Position numbers and translations under genes: made by a program. The notes beneath the pieces were generated by a model. It did no database searches and had not been told where the DNA came from. It was given only the letters and a program-made list of their open reading frames with translations. This document shows positions 6,125 to 10,153 of a stretch of 29,281 nucleotides of DNA, in pieces (the first letter of the stretch is position 1; each line of letters begins with the position of its first letter). The DNA lies in the IMG/VR virus record IMGVR_UViG_2671180846_000020; one strand, 5' to 3'. This stretch comes from a virus. Its lineage: Duplodnaviria; Heunggongvirae; Uroviricota; Caudoviricetes.

Positions 6125-6430
6125 TTATCGACAGGTCAGGTCACCGCTCACCCGCCGACGAGAAAGCAACACTGACATGCTAAAGCAAAAAATAGATGAA
6201 TAAGTTGAGTTGTGCATATGTAGCCTGACCGTCACAAAGTATATGGTGTCTGTACCAGTAAGATGATGGCCGGACTCTTTAAAAACGAGCTGACCTGCAC
6301 AATACAGGATGGACTTAGCAATGGCTGCTCCTGGCACAAAGCGGACAGTGATCACCGTTCTTACGACTACTTTCTGACTTCCTTCGTGACTTGCCCTAAG
6401 CATGTTGTAGTGCGATACTTGTAATGACAT
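6125..6430 (-). CDS. doubtful ORF, 101 aa (YdfV-like by position and length)
   Basis: Length and position match the YdfV ORF annotated next to relB in Qin, but the composition is not protein-like and its start lies inside the relBE operator. Confidence 0.25.
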   Translation of the reverse strand: MSLQVSHYNMLRASHEGSQKVVVRTVITVRFVPGAAIAKSILYCAGQLVFKESGHHLTGTDTIYFVTVRLHMHNSTYSSIFCFSMSVLLSRRRVSGDLTCR

Positions 6431-6454
6431 TTGTAATTACAAGAGGTGTAAGAC
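6395..6454 (+). promoter_or_regulatory. relBE promoter and operator
   Basis: The palindromic repeat TTGTAATGACATTTGTAATTACAA lies immediately upstream of the relB start, as in the known relO operator. Confidence 0.6.
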
Positions 6455-6694
6455 ATGGGTAGCATTAACCTGCGTATTGACGATGAACTTAAAGCGCGTT
6501 CTTACGCCGCGCTTGAAAAAATGGGTGTAACTCCTTCTGAAGCGCTTCGTCTCATGCTCGAGTATATCGCTGACAATGAACGCTTGCCGTTCAAACAGAC
6601 ACTCCTGAGTGATGAAGATGCTGAACTTGTGGAGATAGTGAAAGAACGGCTTCGTAATCCTAAGCCAGTACGTGTGACGCTGGATGAACTCTGA
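6455..6694 (+). CDS. relB: RelB antitoxin
   Basis: 79-aa protein MGSINLRIDDELKARSYAALEKMGVTPSEALRLMLEYIADNERLPFKQ... recognised as RelB; its stop overlaps the relE start (ATGA). Confidence 0.9.
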   Translation: MGSINLRIDDELKARSYAALEKMGVTPSEALRLMLEYIADNERLPFKQTLLSDEDAELVEIVKERLRNPKPVRVTLDEL

Positions 6695-6981
6695 TGGCGT
6701 ATTTTCTGGATTTTGACGAGCGGGCACTAAAGGAATGGCGAAAGCTGGGCTCGACGGTACGTGAACAGTTGAAAAAGAAGCTGGTTGAAGTACTTGAGTC
6801 ACCCCGGATTGAAGCAAACAAGCTCCGTGGTATGCCTGATTGTTACAAGATTAAGCTCCGGTCTTCAGGCTATCGCCTTGTATACCAGGTTATAGACGAG
6901 AAAGTTGTCGTTTTCGTGATTTCTGTTGGGAAAAGAGAACGCTCGGAAGTATATAGCGAGGCGGTCAAACGCATTCTCTGA
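6694..6981 (+). CDS. relE: RelE mRNA interferase toxin
   Basis: 95-aa protein MAYFLDFDERALKEWRKLGSTVREQLKKKL... recognised as RelE, translationally coupled to relB. Confidence 0.9.
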   Translation: MAYFLDFDERALKEWRKLGSTVREQLKKKLVEVLESPRIEANKLRGMPDCYKIKLRSSGYRLVYQVIDEKVVVFVISVGKRERSEVYSEAVKRIL

Positions 6982-7052
6982 ACCAAAGCATGACATCTCT
7001 GTTTCGCACCGAAGGTGACACTTCTGCTTTGCGTTGACAGGAGAAGCAGGCT

Positions 7053-7100
7053 ATGAAGCAGCAAAAGGCGATGTTAATCGCCCTGATCGTCATCTGTTTA
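7053..7100 (+). CDS. hokD: Hok-family toxin (HokD/RelF-like), N-terminal 16 codons only; rest masked by the N run
   Basis: MKQQKAMLIALIVICL is the start of a Hok-type membrane toxin immediately downstream of relE, then the sequence becomes N from 7101. Confidence 0.6.
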
Positions 7101-7157
7101 NNNNNNNNNNNNNNNNNNNNNNNNNNNNNNNNNNNNNNNNNNNNNNNNNNNNNNNNN
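7101..7157. other. run of 57 N (gap or masked sequence)
   Basis: Uninterrupted N characters in the supplied sequence; it interrupts the hok gene. Confidence 0.99.
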
Positions 7158-7171
7158 CGCACCCGCACTTA

Positions 7172-7203
7172 ACCCGCTTCGGCGGGTTTTTGTTTTTATT
7201 TTC
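7172..7203 (+). terminator. rho-independent terminator after hok
   Basis: Hairpin CCCGC-TTCG-GCGGG followed by TTTTTGTTTTTATTTT. Confidence 0.55.
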
Positions 7204-7318
7204 AACGCGTTTGAAGTTCTGGACGGTGCCGGAATAGAATCAAAAATACTTAAGTAGCGCGCAGGGATAAGAGGGATGGTCCCTTAAAGGGGAGAGCTAA
7301 TTATCCGGAAGGATTCTG

Positions 7319-7570
7319 ATGATGAACATCGAAGAACTGCGTAAAATTTTTTGTGAAGATGGCCTCTATGCTGTGTGCGTTGAAAATGGAAATCTTGTTA
7401 GTCATTACCGCATTATGTGTTTGCGAAAGAATGGGGCTGCGTTAATTAATTTTGTGGATGCTCGGGTCACGGACGGATTTATCTTGCGCGAAGGTGAGTT
7501 TGTCACTTCATTACAGGCATTGAAAGAGATCGGAATAAAAGCTGGCTTTTCTGCTTTTTCAGGAGAATAA
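7319..7570 (+). CDS. rem: Rem-like small protein, 83 aa
   Basis: 83-aa ORF with a GGAAGGA SD; length and position between hok and the DUF968 gene match rem of Qin. The sequence itself was not verified against a reference. Confidence 0.5.
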   Translation: MMNIEELRKIFCEDGLYAVCVENGNLVSHYRIMCLRKNGAALINFVDARVTDGFILREGEFVTSLQALKEIGIKAGFSAFSGE

Positions 7571-7636
7571 ACTCATCTACAATCTTGCGCGGGGCTGAAC
7601 TCCCGCTGAGTAACACCGTGCCACCGGAGAAAACCG

Positions 7637-7915
7637 ATGGCACGCAACGCAAAATATTACAATTCTGATAATTCGCCCGTTCTTGCCTGCACGCACGGGC
7701 GGTATTCTCACGCATTCAAGTCTGAATGGTTCCAGCACCCTCCATGCACTGCAGAACAGGCCGAATGGCTGATTCATTCTTACCGCAGGCGCGGGTTCGA
7801 GGTTAAGAAAGCTCTCAGTCTCGACTATCGGCACTGGATAATCTCTGTCAGGCTGCCTTATTCCGAACGCCCACCACGTGCGTCCCGCACTTTCCAGCAA
7901 CGGATCTGGAGGTAA
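7637..7915 (+). CDS. hypothetical protein, 92 aa, translationally coupled to the downstream DUF968 gene
   Basis: Its TAA stop (7913-7915) overlaps the GGAGGT SD of the next gene, whose GTG start is at 7917. Confidence 0.45.
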   Translation: MARNAKYYNSDNSPVLACTHGRYSHAFKSEWFQHPPCTAEQAEWLIHSYRRRGFEVKKALSLDYRHWIISVRLPYSERPPRASRTFQQRIWR

Positions 7916-7916
7916 C

Positions 7917-8966
7917 GTGCGGGTATTACTTAGACCTGTTCTGGTGCCTGAGCTTGGGCTGGTGGTCCTTAAGCCGGGCCGTGAATCCATACAGATATTT
8001 CATAATCCTCGAGTGCTGGTGGAACCGGAACCAAAAAGCATGCGTAATCTGCCATCCGGAGTCGTTCCTGCCGTTCGCCAGCCGCTGGCGGAAGACAAAA
8101 CATTGCTGCCGTTTTTTAGTAACGAACGGGTGATTCGTGCTGCTGGCGGCGTTGGCGCATTGTCCGACTGGCTATTACGTCATGTTACATCCTGCCAGTG
8201 GCCTAATGGCGATTACCATCACACTGAAACAGTCATTCACCGTTATGGTACCGGCGCAATGGTGTTGTGCTGGCACTGCGACAACCAACTGCGTGACCAG
8301 ACATCGGAATCACTGGAGCTGCTTGCTCAACAAAATCTGACAGCATGGGTGATTGACGTCATCCGTCACGCAATAAGCGGTACGCAGGAGCGGGAATTAT
8401 CTTTGGCTGAATTATCCTGGTGGGCGGTCTGCAATCAGGTGGTGGATGCACTACCTGAGGCTGTATCGCGTCGTTCGCTGGGATTACCAGCGGAAAAAAT
8501 CTGCTCGGTGTACCGCGAAAGCGACATCGTACCGGGAGAGCAGACCGCCACCAGCATATTGAAACAACGCACAAAAAATCTTGCACCGTTGCCTTACGCC
8601 CACCAGCAACAAAAATCACCACAGGAAAAGACGGTGGTAAGCATCACCGTTGATCCAGAGTCTCCGGAATCTTTCATGAAGCTGCCTAAACGTCGCCGCT
8701 GGGTTAAGGAGAAATACACACGTTGGGTTAAGACACAGCCGTGTGCTTGCTGCGGTATGCCAGCCGACGATCCGCATCATCTGATTGGTCACGGGCAGGG
8801 CGGAATGGGAACAAAAGCACATGATCTCTTTGTGTTGCCTTTGTGCAGAAAGCATCACAACGAGCTGCATACGGATACAGTGGCATTTGAAGATAAGTAT
8901 GGCTCCCAACTGGAGCTGATATTTCGTTTTATCGATCGCGCGCTGGCAATTGGCGTACTGGCGTAA
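7917..8966 (+). CDS. DUF968-type protein with C-terminal HNH-like zinc motif (YdfU-like)
   Basis: A GTG start at 7917 gives 349 aa. The C-terminus carries QPCACCGMPADDPHHLIGHGQGG ... LPLCRKHHNELH, an HNH-nuclease-like Cys/His arrangement, and there is a second CxxC (CWHC) earlier. Confidence 0.65.
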   Translation: MRVLLRPVLVPELGLVVLKPGRESIQIFHNPRVLVEPEPKSMRNLPSGVVPAVRQPLAEDKTLLPFFSNERVIRAAGGVGALSDWLLRHVTSCQWPNGDYHHTETVIHRYGTGAMVLCWHCDNQLRDQTSESLELLAQQNLTAWVIDVIRHAISGTQERELSLAELSWWAVCNQVVDALPEAVSRRSLGLPAEKICSVYRESDIVPGEQTATSILKQRTKNLAPLPYAHQQQKSPQEKTVVSITVDPESPESFMKLPKRRRWVKEKYTRWVKTQPCACCGMPADDPHHLIGHGQGGMGTKAHDLFVLPLCRKHHNELHTDTVAFEDKYGSQLELIFRFIDRALAIGVLA

Positions 8967-8979
8967 GTGGAGAACGAGC

Positions 8980-9732
8980 ATGAACCTTGAAGCCTTACCA
9001 AAATATTACTCCCCAAAATCTCCAAAATTGAGCGATGACGCTCCAGCGACAGGCACCGGTTGTTTAACAATTACGGATGTAATGGCAGCGCAGGGGATGG
9101 TGCAGTCGAAAGCACCACTTGGGTTGGCCTTATTTCTGGCAAAAGTTGGTGTTCAGGACCCTCAGTTTGCGATTGAAGGCCTGCTAAATTACGCGATGGC
9201 ACTGGATAACCCGACATTGAACAAATTGAGTGAAGAAATCCGGTTACAGATTATTCCTTACCTCGTGAATTTTGCCTTTGCTGATTACTCCAGGTCTGCG
9301 GCAAGTAAGGCTCGCTGTGAGCATTGTTCAGGTACGGGATTTTATAATGTATTGCGCGAAGTGGTGAAACACTACCGACGCGGGGAATCTGTAATCAAGG
9401 AAGAATGGGTGAAGGAACTATGTCAGCATTGCCATGGTAAGGGTGAAGTCAGCACAGCGTGCAGAGGGTGTAAGGGTAAAGGGATTGTTCTGGATGAAAA
9501 AAGAACCCGGTTTCATGGCGTACCGGTATATAAGATTTGTGGGCGTTGTAATGGAAACCGGTTTAGTCGTTTACCGACCACGCTGGCACGACGTCATGTC
9601 CAGAAGCTGGTACCAGACCTGACCGATTATCAGTGGTATAAGGGGTATGCGGACGTCATTGGTAAACTGGTAACAAAGTGCTGGCAGGAAGAAGCATACG
9701 CGGAAGCGCAATTGAGGAAGGTGACGAGATAA
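8980..9732 (+). CDS. late-gene antiterminator Q (phage 82/21 type)
   Basis: Positioned just upstream of a terminator and the lysis genes, with multiple CxxC zinc-binding pairs (CEHCSG, CQHCHG, CRGCKG, CGRCNG). Start taken at MNLEALPKYY. Confidence 0.7.
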   Translation: MNLEALPKYYSPKSPKLSDDAPATGTGCLTITDVMAAQGMVQSKAPLGLALFLAKVGVQDPQFAIEGLLNYAMALDNPTLNKLSEEIRLQIIPYLVNFAFADYSRSAASKARCEHCSGTGFYNVLREVVKHYRRGESVIKEEWVKELCQHCHGKGEVSTACRGCKGKGIVLDEKRTRFHGVPVYKICGRCNGNRFSRLPTTLARRHVQKLVPDLTDYQWYKGYADVIGKLVTKCWQEEAYAEAQLRKVTR

Positions 9733-9837
9733 ATGATTTTTGCTGAAGATGGCGACATGATGTTTGCATTTTTCAAAAAATATGGATAAAATTTTTTCAA
9801 CGATGGGCTTTGTATACCCGACGTTAAGAAAAAGTAG

Positions 9838-9868
9838 AAAACCCGCTGATGAGCGGGTTTTGTGCTTT
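9838..9868 (+). terminator. rho-independent terminator downstream of Q (tR'-like)
   Basis: Hairpin CCCGCT-GATG-AGCGGG followed by TTTTGTGCTTT, about 105 nt after the Q stop. Confidence 0.6.
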
Positions 9869-10153
9869 AAATGGGGCAATGGTAATGTTGAATCTCATCC
9901 CGGGACTCATGTCTGTTAACTTATTATTTAGCTGGTGACTTGGTTATTTGCCTGATGTTTAAAATGTTTTCTTCCAGTACAATGTCCCTAAACACAATGA
10001 GTCTGCTTATTATATTATTAGCAGAGCTATTACGGCCAAAGTACAGCATAAGCTTTTAAAGCCAATCAACCAGTCATCAAGACAGACGGGGTTATTCATA
10101 AAAACTCTCCATGTGTGATCCGATGGGGCCTGAAATTAAAGCTTTAATATAGC

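Follow-up and report, generated by a model that had tools for sequence, protein, structure and literature searches.

Rem, a 92-codon gene and the HNH-type protein YdfU: consecutive early genes ahead of the late antiterminator of the Qin prophage

The locus

A 29,281-nucleotide stretch of caudoviricete DNA (IMG/VR record IMGVR_UViG_2671180846_000020; hereafter "the window") carries at positions 7,319–8,966 three consecutive genes, namely rem, an open reading frame (ORF) of 92 codons referred to here as orf92, and ydfU, which lie between a group of toxin–antitoxin (TA) loci and the gene of a late antiterminator (Table 1). The segment 7160–9000 is 100% identical to the corresponding DNA of E. coli K-12 strains, C600 and J53 among them, where it belongs to the cryptic prophage Qin, and 4920 of the 5426 complete E. 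coli genomes contain matches to it, as a rule several per genome, with Shiga-toxin phages among the carriers. In C600 the genes follow one another in the order flxA, ydfV, relB, relE, hokD, rem, WP_012304870.1 ("hypothetical protein"), ydfU (DUF968), ydfT (antiterminator Q), cspF and cspB. What lies at this locus is known K-12 biology, i.e., a series of consecutive genes of the Qin early region, and not a self-contained cassette.

A first-pass annotation, made from the letters of the window, had described the three ORFs as co-directional and tightly packed, and these properties are real: 66 nt separate rem from orf92 and a single nucleotide separates the orf92 stop from the ydfU start, the Prokaryotic Genome Annotation Pipeline (PGAP) calls all three genes in the identical C600 sequence, and each of them, read from the + strand, is under purifying selection, with ratios of non-synonymous to synonymous substitution rates (dN/dS) that exclude chance ORFs. 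The ratio is 0.24 for rem (8 alleles) and 0.11 for ydfU (61 alleles), within which the C-terminal domain has the lowest value of the protein (0.06). For orf92 it is 0.20 overall, as determined with 37 other 92-codon alleles, and splits into 0.11 for codons 27–92 and 0.54 for codons 1–26, the other two reading frames over the same DNA giving 1.5–1.8. In the reference genome of MG1655 (NC_000913.3) nothing is annotated between rem (b1561) and ydfU (b1560), so that the 92-codon ORF is missing from the reference annotation; in other K-12 assemblies PGAP predicts it.

Table 1. Features of the Qin-type early region in the window, with positions counted from its first nucleotide
Feature	Position	Strand	Remarks
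Terminator-like hairpin and T-run	7171–7196	+	stem AACCCGC/GCGGGTT, 7 pairs, then TTTGTTTTTA; 3′ of hokD; bounds the TA loci against rem
rem, 83 aa	7319–7570	+	annotated "protein Rem"; PHROG 340
orf92, 92 aa	7637–7915	+	WP_012304870.1 (PGAP, C600)
orf92, variable disordered N-extension, codons 1–26	7637–7714	+	
orf92, conserved core, codons 27–92	7715–7912	+	PHROG 1212
orf92–ydfU coupling junction	7907–7919	+	TGGAGGTAAcGTG; GGAGG, TAA, one base, GTG
ydfU, GTG start, 349 aa	7917–8966	+	
ydfU, N-terminal domain, residues 1–227	7917–8597	+	family-specific; conserved C93, C/H101, C118-W-H-H/C-D-N
ydfU, linker, residues 228–262	8598–8702	+	partly disordered; ends in conserved D246..P257-K258
ydfU, predicted C-terminal His-Me (HNH) finger, residues 263–349 and stop	8703–8966	+	
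ydfU motifs	8742–8753; 8775–8780; 8844–8870	+	CxxC; HH; CRKHHNELH, respectively
ydfT/quuQ, late antiterminator Q	8980–9732	+	Pfam Antiterm 3.4e-54; start 13 nt past the ydfU stop

The junction between orf92 and ydfU

The 3′ end of orf92 reads ATC TGG AGG TAA c GTG, with a Shine–Dalgarno-like GGAGG contained within the last two sense codons. It had been proposed that the orf92 stop overlaps the Shine–Dalgarno sequence and that the two genes are co-translated; strictly, there is no overlap, the stop being located between GGAGG and GTG, yet the point concerning coupling stands and the junction is retained in 56 distinct upstream variants. As the end of orf92 carries the ribosome-binding site (RBS) of the next, nuclease-like gene, the pair is probably translated in a coupled manner, the arrangement being what is seen and the coupling what is deduced from it.

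The same design recurs in 80 other phage loci that contain the 66-amino acid (aa) homologues of orf92 described below. These genes end in TGG GG(G/T) TGA, followed by two bases and ATG or GTG, and a junction of this TGGGG type is found 5′ of NinG, of YbcO-like proteins, of RusA and of a 148-aa Cys-rich (Zn) protein. Since the design is common to all 66-aa genes, the coupling signal is a property of the family and is not specific for ydfU; to judge from the codons themselves, the last two of a PHROG 1212 gene appear to serve as the RBS of the nuclease slot.

orf92 and the PHROG 1212 family

Residues 27–92 of Orf92 match positions 1–66 of the 66-position PHROG 1212 profile (E = 1.7e-35), and an alignment of the protein with the 66-aa proteins of Gifsy-2 and mEp237 contains 16 invariant columns. 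In the AlphaFold 2 (AF2) model residues 1–23 have a predicted local distance difference test (pLDDT) score <50 and the core is a β-α-β-β element with pLDDT ~85. A search of 5.8 billion proteins with Orf92 returned Escherichia and Shigella proteins only, all of 90–92 aa; tblastn against phage genomes uncovered 66-aa homologues with 30–48% identity in Gifsy-2, mEp237, PY54 and SPN3UB, as well as in phages of Klebsiella, Hafnia, Edwardsiella and Erwinia. The small protein is basic in Qin (isoelectric point 10.2) and is not so across the family. It is not related to the lambda NinD, NinE, NinF or NinH proteins, a kinship that was considered and rejected, as was one with PdcA of phage P1 (hhalign E = 0.93).

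The genomic context of the 66-aa family was counted in 80 IMG/VR loci. A DUF1367 gene precedes the 66-aa gene in every one of them, and the slot that follows is occupied by NinG (46 loci), by a YbcO-like His-Me protein (27, with RusA next in 23 of these), by RusA alone (5) or by neither (2). The order typical of Gifsy-2 and mEp237 is dinI, a small gene in the position of rem, DUF1367, the 66-aa gene, NinG or a YbcO-like protein plus RusA, YlcG and Q. In three loci (L117, L124 and L132) the 66-aa gene and NinG are separated by the gene of the 148-aa Cys-rich protein, for which Pfam gives no match. In several others (L113, L122, L126, L140, L147 etc.) the gene directly 3′ of the 66-aa gene encodes a divergent His-Me protein of 97–102 aa (MAIYRSKKWLAAV...CVLCG...VAHRN...CVCCHDSID), usually with a RusA-family gene next to it, that matches both Pfam YbcO (2.5e-5) and DUF968 (8.7e-4) and bridges the two families.

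DUF1367 is absent from the ydfU loci (0 of 71), where the small gene bears instead a variable N-terminal extension of 24–26 codons with in-frame indels. Alignment of the RBS and first codons of orf92 to the beginning of DUF1367 in mEp237 gives a score of 28, compared with 16.3 ± 2.1 (maximum 26) for shuffled sequences, and most orf92 alleles begin with MAH, as compared with MAHELQL in DUF1367. We infer, with moderate support, that orf92 originated when a deletion joined the 5′ end of DUF1367 to the 66-aa gene, in which case its 26 N-terminal residues would be a remnant of the former.

A homologue of orf92 is labelled "toxin to Rem" in ON470583 and ON470612, one of which is represented by Escherichia phage vB_EcoS-689R5 (locus L169, 3501–3779); the label is unreferenced, looks automatic and could mislead, no rem being annotated upstream.

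Domains and family of YdfU

Pfam DUF968 (PF06147) covers residues 160–346 of YdfU with E = 1.4e-76 and 256.8 bits, well over its gathering threshold of 27.8, and PHROG 96, labelled "HNH endonuclease", matches the protein as well; a search of cluster representatives returned 96 clusters at E<1e-30 together with many shorter proteins whose match is confined to the YdfU C-terminus. The AF2 model, built from 39 diverse sequences, has a mean pLDDT of 86, falling below 50 in the linker at residues 228–240.

The Cys/His cluster from which an HNH-like C-terminus had been predicted, namely CACCG (residues 276–280), DDPHH (284–288) and CRKHHNELH (310–318), is there, and both profile and structure predictions assign to it a His-Me finger fold with an intact motif. 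The hallmarks of the His-Me finger (HNH) superfamily, i.e., the β-β-α-metal fold, a catalytic His that closes strand 1 and a metal-ligand His/Asn/Asp in the helix, are all recognizable; throughout the YdfU clade H287/H288, H314 and H318 do not vary, and they align with HH and C..HH of P1 Ref and with AH and C..CH of YbcO. These residues, all intact, are thus candidates for catalysis or metal binding, and the C-terminal 87 residues are predicted to form a zinc-stabilized His-Me finger whose candidate ligands are C276, C279, C310 and H313. Conserved, in addition, are D246, P257 and K258.

The C-terminal domain is a sister of YbcO/DUF1364, of P1 Ref and of the HNH module of staphylococcal Gp16. 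Already in 2017 YdfU had been placed in group 7 of the His-Me fingers, and RusA, Q and antirepressor genes had been noted among its neighbours (PMC5714182). With Pfam YbcO/DUF1364 (PF07102) YdfU gives no match at E≤0.1, the relation existing at superfamily level only, and it bears no NinB/Orf-like N-terminal domain such as that of the Orf(NinB)–HNH fusions. A search of the PDB by sequence with full-length YdfU gave no match; a profile match to PDB 3g27 was discounted as circular because a YbcO-like sequence was part of the profile, and the search was repeated without it.

The N-terminal domain is shared with PdcB of phage P1. An additional CxxC had been reported upstream of the cluster, and CWHC is indeed present at residues 118–121, but its second Cys is not conserved and most homologues have CWHHDN. 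The stretch C-W-H-H/C-D-N-x-L (residues 118–123, 8268–8285) lies on a predicted β-β-α element and resembles the CRKHHNELH finger (310–318); an internal duplication of this element and the C-terminal finger, considered on account of their in-register alignment, was not established (hhalign E = 0.05). In six proteins (P0265, P0276, P0293, P0309, P0310 and P0376) the first 115–270 residues of YdfU are joined to domains of the tail fibre, the tail tip (J) or the capsid; such joins were rejected as informative fusions, being most likely prophage-deletion junctions, assembly chimeras or gene-call artefacts.

Neighbourhood of ydfU

The company kept by ydfU was recorded in 80 IMG/VR loci encoding a YdfU with at least 83% identity, all from closely related E. 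coli prophages. The gene immediately 5′ of ydfU is orf92 in 78 of 79 loci. On the 3′ side the next gene encodes RusA in 59 of 76, with a Q of a different type after it, and a Qin-type Q in 12 of 76. Neither NinG nor YbcO occurs within 8 kb of ydfU in any of the 80 loci and, therefore, YdfU fills the YbcO position, next to RusA. A correlation between the identities of orf92 and ydfU was rejected as a signal, linkage being sufficient to account for it. More distant homologues (44–58% identity) in SfV, YeP3 and a Klebsiella phage are arranged in the order RusA, KilA-N protein, YdfU, Q, without orf92; the context in the Vibrio phage Cla offered nothing informative.

rem is a less regular companion, being found in 24 of the 76 ydfU loci with enough upstream sequence and replaced elsewhere by hokD or other DNA that abuts orf92; hok is a neighbour in 59 of 76, located 5′ of a variable gap. 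Given the sporadic presence of rem and the absence of orf92 from the distant YdfU homologues, the view of the three genes as a co-occurring cassette had to be abandoned, and the "accessory region" to which they had been assigned turned out to be the segment just 5′ of Q that lambdoid phages conserve, syntenic with the Gifsy-2/mEp237 order.

As to the remaining features of the region, a run of N at 7101–7157 covers most of hokD, and a search of Rfam gave no match in 6300–10000, where the hok/sok RNA elements are not scannable owing to that run. Promoter-like sites in the region number 5, compared with 4.6 expected in shuffled sequence, which is the chance level; a weak one (TTGAAG-18-TAGAAT, 7211–7240) is located ~80 nt 5′ of rem.

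Rem and the induction circuit

The premise that no function can be assigned to these genes does not hold for rem. Experiments have established Rem as an antirepressor directed against DicA, the repressor of Qin: when Rem is expressed, the promoter dicBp, which DicA controls, is derepressed 165-fold and the cells filament in a way that depends on DicB/DicF (Ragunathan et al., J Bacteriol 2023, PMC10448788). Since it relieves the repression of dicBp by DicA, rem belongs to the prophage induction circuit. A 2024 survey in which both rem and ydfU are given as uncharacterized (PMC11551758) misses the 2023 paper. Rem was discovered via the Gifsy-type antirepressors (GfoA, FsoA) and, like these, lifts the repression exerted by a short non-cleavable repressor (PMC10448788); their genes have the same position as rem, 5′ of the DUF1367 and 66-aa genes. 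The sequence similarity between Rem and mEp237_049 is marginal (hhalign E = 0.0013, probability 18%). No LexA-box-like site is present upstream of rem.

Closest known relatives

The stand-alone YbcO of the DLP12 prophage (PDB 3g27) is a protein of ~96 aa whose zinc site is of the CCCC type and whose last metal ligand is acidic; YdfU has 260 further residues at its N-terminus. In P1 Ref (PDB 3plw), a RecA-dependent D-loop nuclease (PMC4330346, PMC3973344), the folded 227-residue domain of YdfU is replaced by an N-terminus of 76 residues that is basic and disordered. PhiNM1 Gp16, like phiETA Orf20 one of the Orf(NinB)–HNH fusions and an early-expressed, RecA-interacting nickase (PMC12817073), has the same HNH layout as YdfU, CxxC..H..CxxHHxxxH. 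Lambda Rap/NinG, which cleaves branched recombination intermediates (PMC4118853), is a His-Me finger nuclease encoded in the equivalent position before Q, with the same 66-aa gene 5′ of it in the Gifsy-type phages, but belongs to a different family, the hhalign match with YdfU (E = 0.002–0.02) being confined to the CxxC region; furthermore, RusA is absent from the NinG phages but usual in the YdfU phages.

The closest parallel over the full length of the protein is P1 PdcB (26% identity over 91%; DUF968 3.6e-50), which has in common with YdfU a GTG start and the N-terminal ELGL and CWHHDN motifs, and whose gene order phd-doc-pdcA-pdcB-lpa echoes the Qin order of TA locus, small gene, ydfU and late regulator, although PdcA is unlike Orf92 and unrelated to it. 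PdcB differs in having ITPY and CQSCQRDIE instead of HH and HHxxxH, and its zinc site apparently consists of four cysteines; judging from these substitutions, the PdcB clade (L004, 3905–4948; P0319, P0331 and P0386) may represent a pseudo-nuclease.

A proposed role in lytic growth and its alternatives

If the three genes do not form an exclusion cassette, what could be their function in front of Q? We consider it moderately probable that they are consecutive delayed-early genes of a lambdoid prophage and that YdfU is an early nickase or endonuclease acting on recombination intermediates. Rem, as experiments show, inactivates the prophage repressor DicA; the 3′ end of orf92 would supply the RBS of the following nuclease gene, so that both are translated as a coupled pair; and YdfU, produced from the delayed-early transcript during lytic growth, would be a metal-dependent DNA nickase or endonuclease. 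Its substrates would be recombination or replication intermediates (D-loops, branched DNA), on which it would act possibly with RecA and in a pathway shared with the RusA resolvase, encoded by the next gene in most relatives, a role suggested by analogy with Ref, Gp16 and Rap/NinG and by RusA being the usual neighbour. The N-terminal domain probably serves substrate or partner recognition. In K-12 ydfU is a relic, silenced by Rho-dependent termination; the terminator located upstream of it is among the strongest of this kind measured (PMC9160355).

Several considerations weigh against this picture. The link with recombination consists of gene neighbourhood and of the relatives of the C-terminal domain only, and the 80 ydfU loci, coming from closely related E. 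coli prophages, are not independent observations. YdfU scores below the Pfam thresholds of two families, reaching 17.8 bits with RecA_dep_nuc (PF16786; gathering threshold 26.9), which leaves it outside the Ref family, and 26.3 bits with HNHc_6 (PF16784; cut-off 26.6). The N-terminal domain, which makes up two thirds of the protein, has no recognizable relative outside the family. We found no published biochemical or genetic data on YdfU, listed as uncharacterized in PMC11551758, and its full-length homologue PdcB is dispensable for plaque formation (PMC10695390). Finally, since the PdcB clade has lost HH and H..H and has kept the motif of the N-terminal domain, the function of the family as a whole may not be catalysis at this site.

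This last circumstance leads to a different reading, in which YdfU and PdcB are mainly non-catalytic zinc-finger DNA-binding proteins tied to the late-expression switch, the HNH residues of the YdfU clade being incidental. PdcB retains both cysteine pairs and CWHHDN despite the loss of HH and H..H, the gene lies immediately 5′ of a late activator in two unrelated types of phage (Q in Qin, SfV, YeP3 and the Klebsiella phage, Lpa in P1), and an Arsenophonus homologue is annotated as a transcriptional regulator (PMC5714182). We nevertheless regard it as rather unlikely: the catalytic residues are invariant in YdfU and the C-terminal domain that holds them is the part with the lowest dN/dS (0.06), the position before Q is held by many unrelated genes in other lambdoid phages, and the adjacency to Q is not conserved, RusA being interposed in 59 of the 76 E. 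coli relatives. Even less probable is that YdfU is a packaging-associated HNH endonuclease that aids the terminase, like HK97 gp74. HNH proteins assisting terminases are common (PMC12817073) and pdcB is only two genes 5′ of pacA/pacB in P1, but pdcB is non-essential, unlike pacA and pacB, and in Qin and its lambdoid relatives ydfU is an early-region gene, located ahead of Q and the lysis genes and separated by ~7 kb from nohA, which is terminase-like; Ref and YbcO, and not the gp74-type proteins, are its nearest structural relatives. We consider this explanation very unlikely.

Two other explanations, both of them quite unlikely in our judgement, concern the set of genes and not YdfU by itself. 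According to one, which takes up the suggestion of the first-pass annotation, orf92 and ydfU, or all three genes, are a module that the prophage expresses in the lysogen for exclusion or defence by means of a nuclease, and it is true that the hairpin 3′ of hokD and the promoter-like site 5′ of rem could delimit a separate transcription unit. However, such sites are no commoner here than in shuffled sequence (5 versus 4.6), and the strong Rho-dependent terminator stops transcription into ydfU in K-12, so that ydfU is not expressed in the lysogen. Rem, Orf92 and YdfU have no PADLOC-DB 2.0 family at E≤0.01, rem is part of the induction circuit, the slot occupied by the genes is filled elsewhere by NinG or by YbcO plus RusA, and hok, frequent as it is (59/76), lies beyond a variable gap; moreover, the characterized relatives of the nuclease domain are phage nucleases linked to recombination or RecA. 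According to the other, Orf92 and YdfU are a nuclease–inhibitor or TA-like pair, the small protein restraining or targeting the nuclease. The near-obligate pairing (78/79), the tight coupling, the purifying selection on both genes and the "toxin to Rem" name of ON470583 and ON470612 are what such a pair would lead one to expect, but the name is automatic and unreferenced, without a rem annotated upstream in that record, the distant YdfU homologues do without orf92, and NCBIfam and PADLOC gave no significant toxin or antitoxin match, the 14.9 bits of Rem with SocB (cut-off 210) being noise. A specific inhibitor of YdfU is also unlikely because the nucleases to which the 66-aa family is coupled (NinG, YbcO-like proteins, RusA) are structurally unrelated, the constant neighbour of the family there being DUF1367.

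A bolder version of the recombination role can be envisaged, in which the 66-aa PHROG 1212 protein would be a dedicated partner, translationally coupled and made in fixed ratio, that targets or restrains whichever junction-processing nuclease follows it in the slot (NinG, YbcO, RusA or YdfU), and YdfU would be a Ref-like nuclease guided by a recombinase, RecA or another, its unmatched N-terminal domain being responsible for recognition; we hold this to be rather unlikely.

Significance

ydfU and the unnamed ORF in front of it are among the remaining uncharacterized genes of the best-studied bacterium and have relatives in thousands of E. coli genomes. New in the present analysis are a gene missing from the annotation of MG1655, a coupling of the 66-aa genes with the nuclease slot that extends across their whole family, a YdfU core resembling those of Ref and Gp16 and a structurally unmatched N-terminal domain shared with P1 PdcB. 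The analysis also provides a testable hypothesis for YdfU, that of a Ref/Gp16-like nickase working with RusA. If YdfU, like Ref, were directed by a recombinase, it might be of interest for programmable cleavage; otherwise, it would belong to the ordinary housekeeping of prophages.

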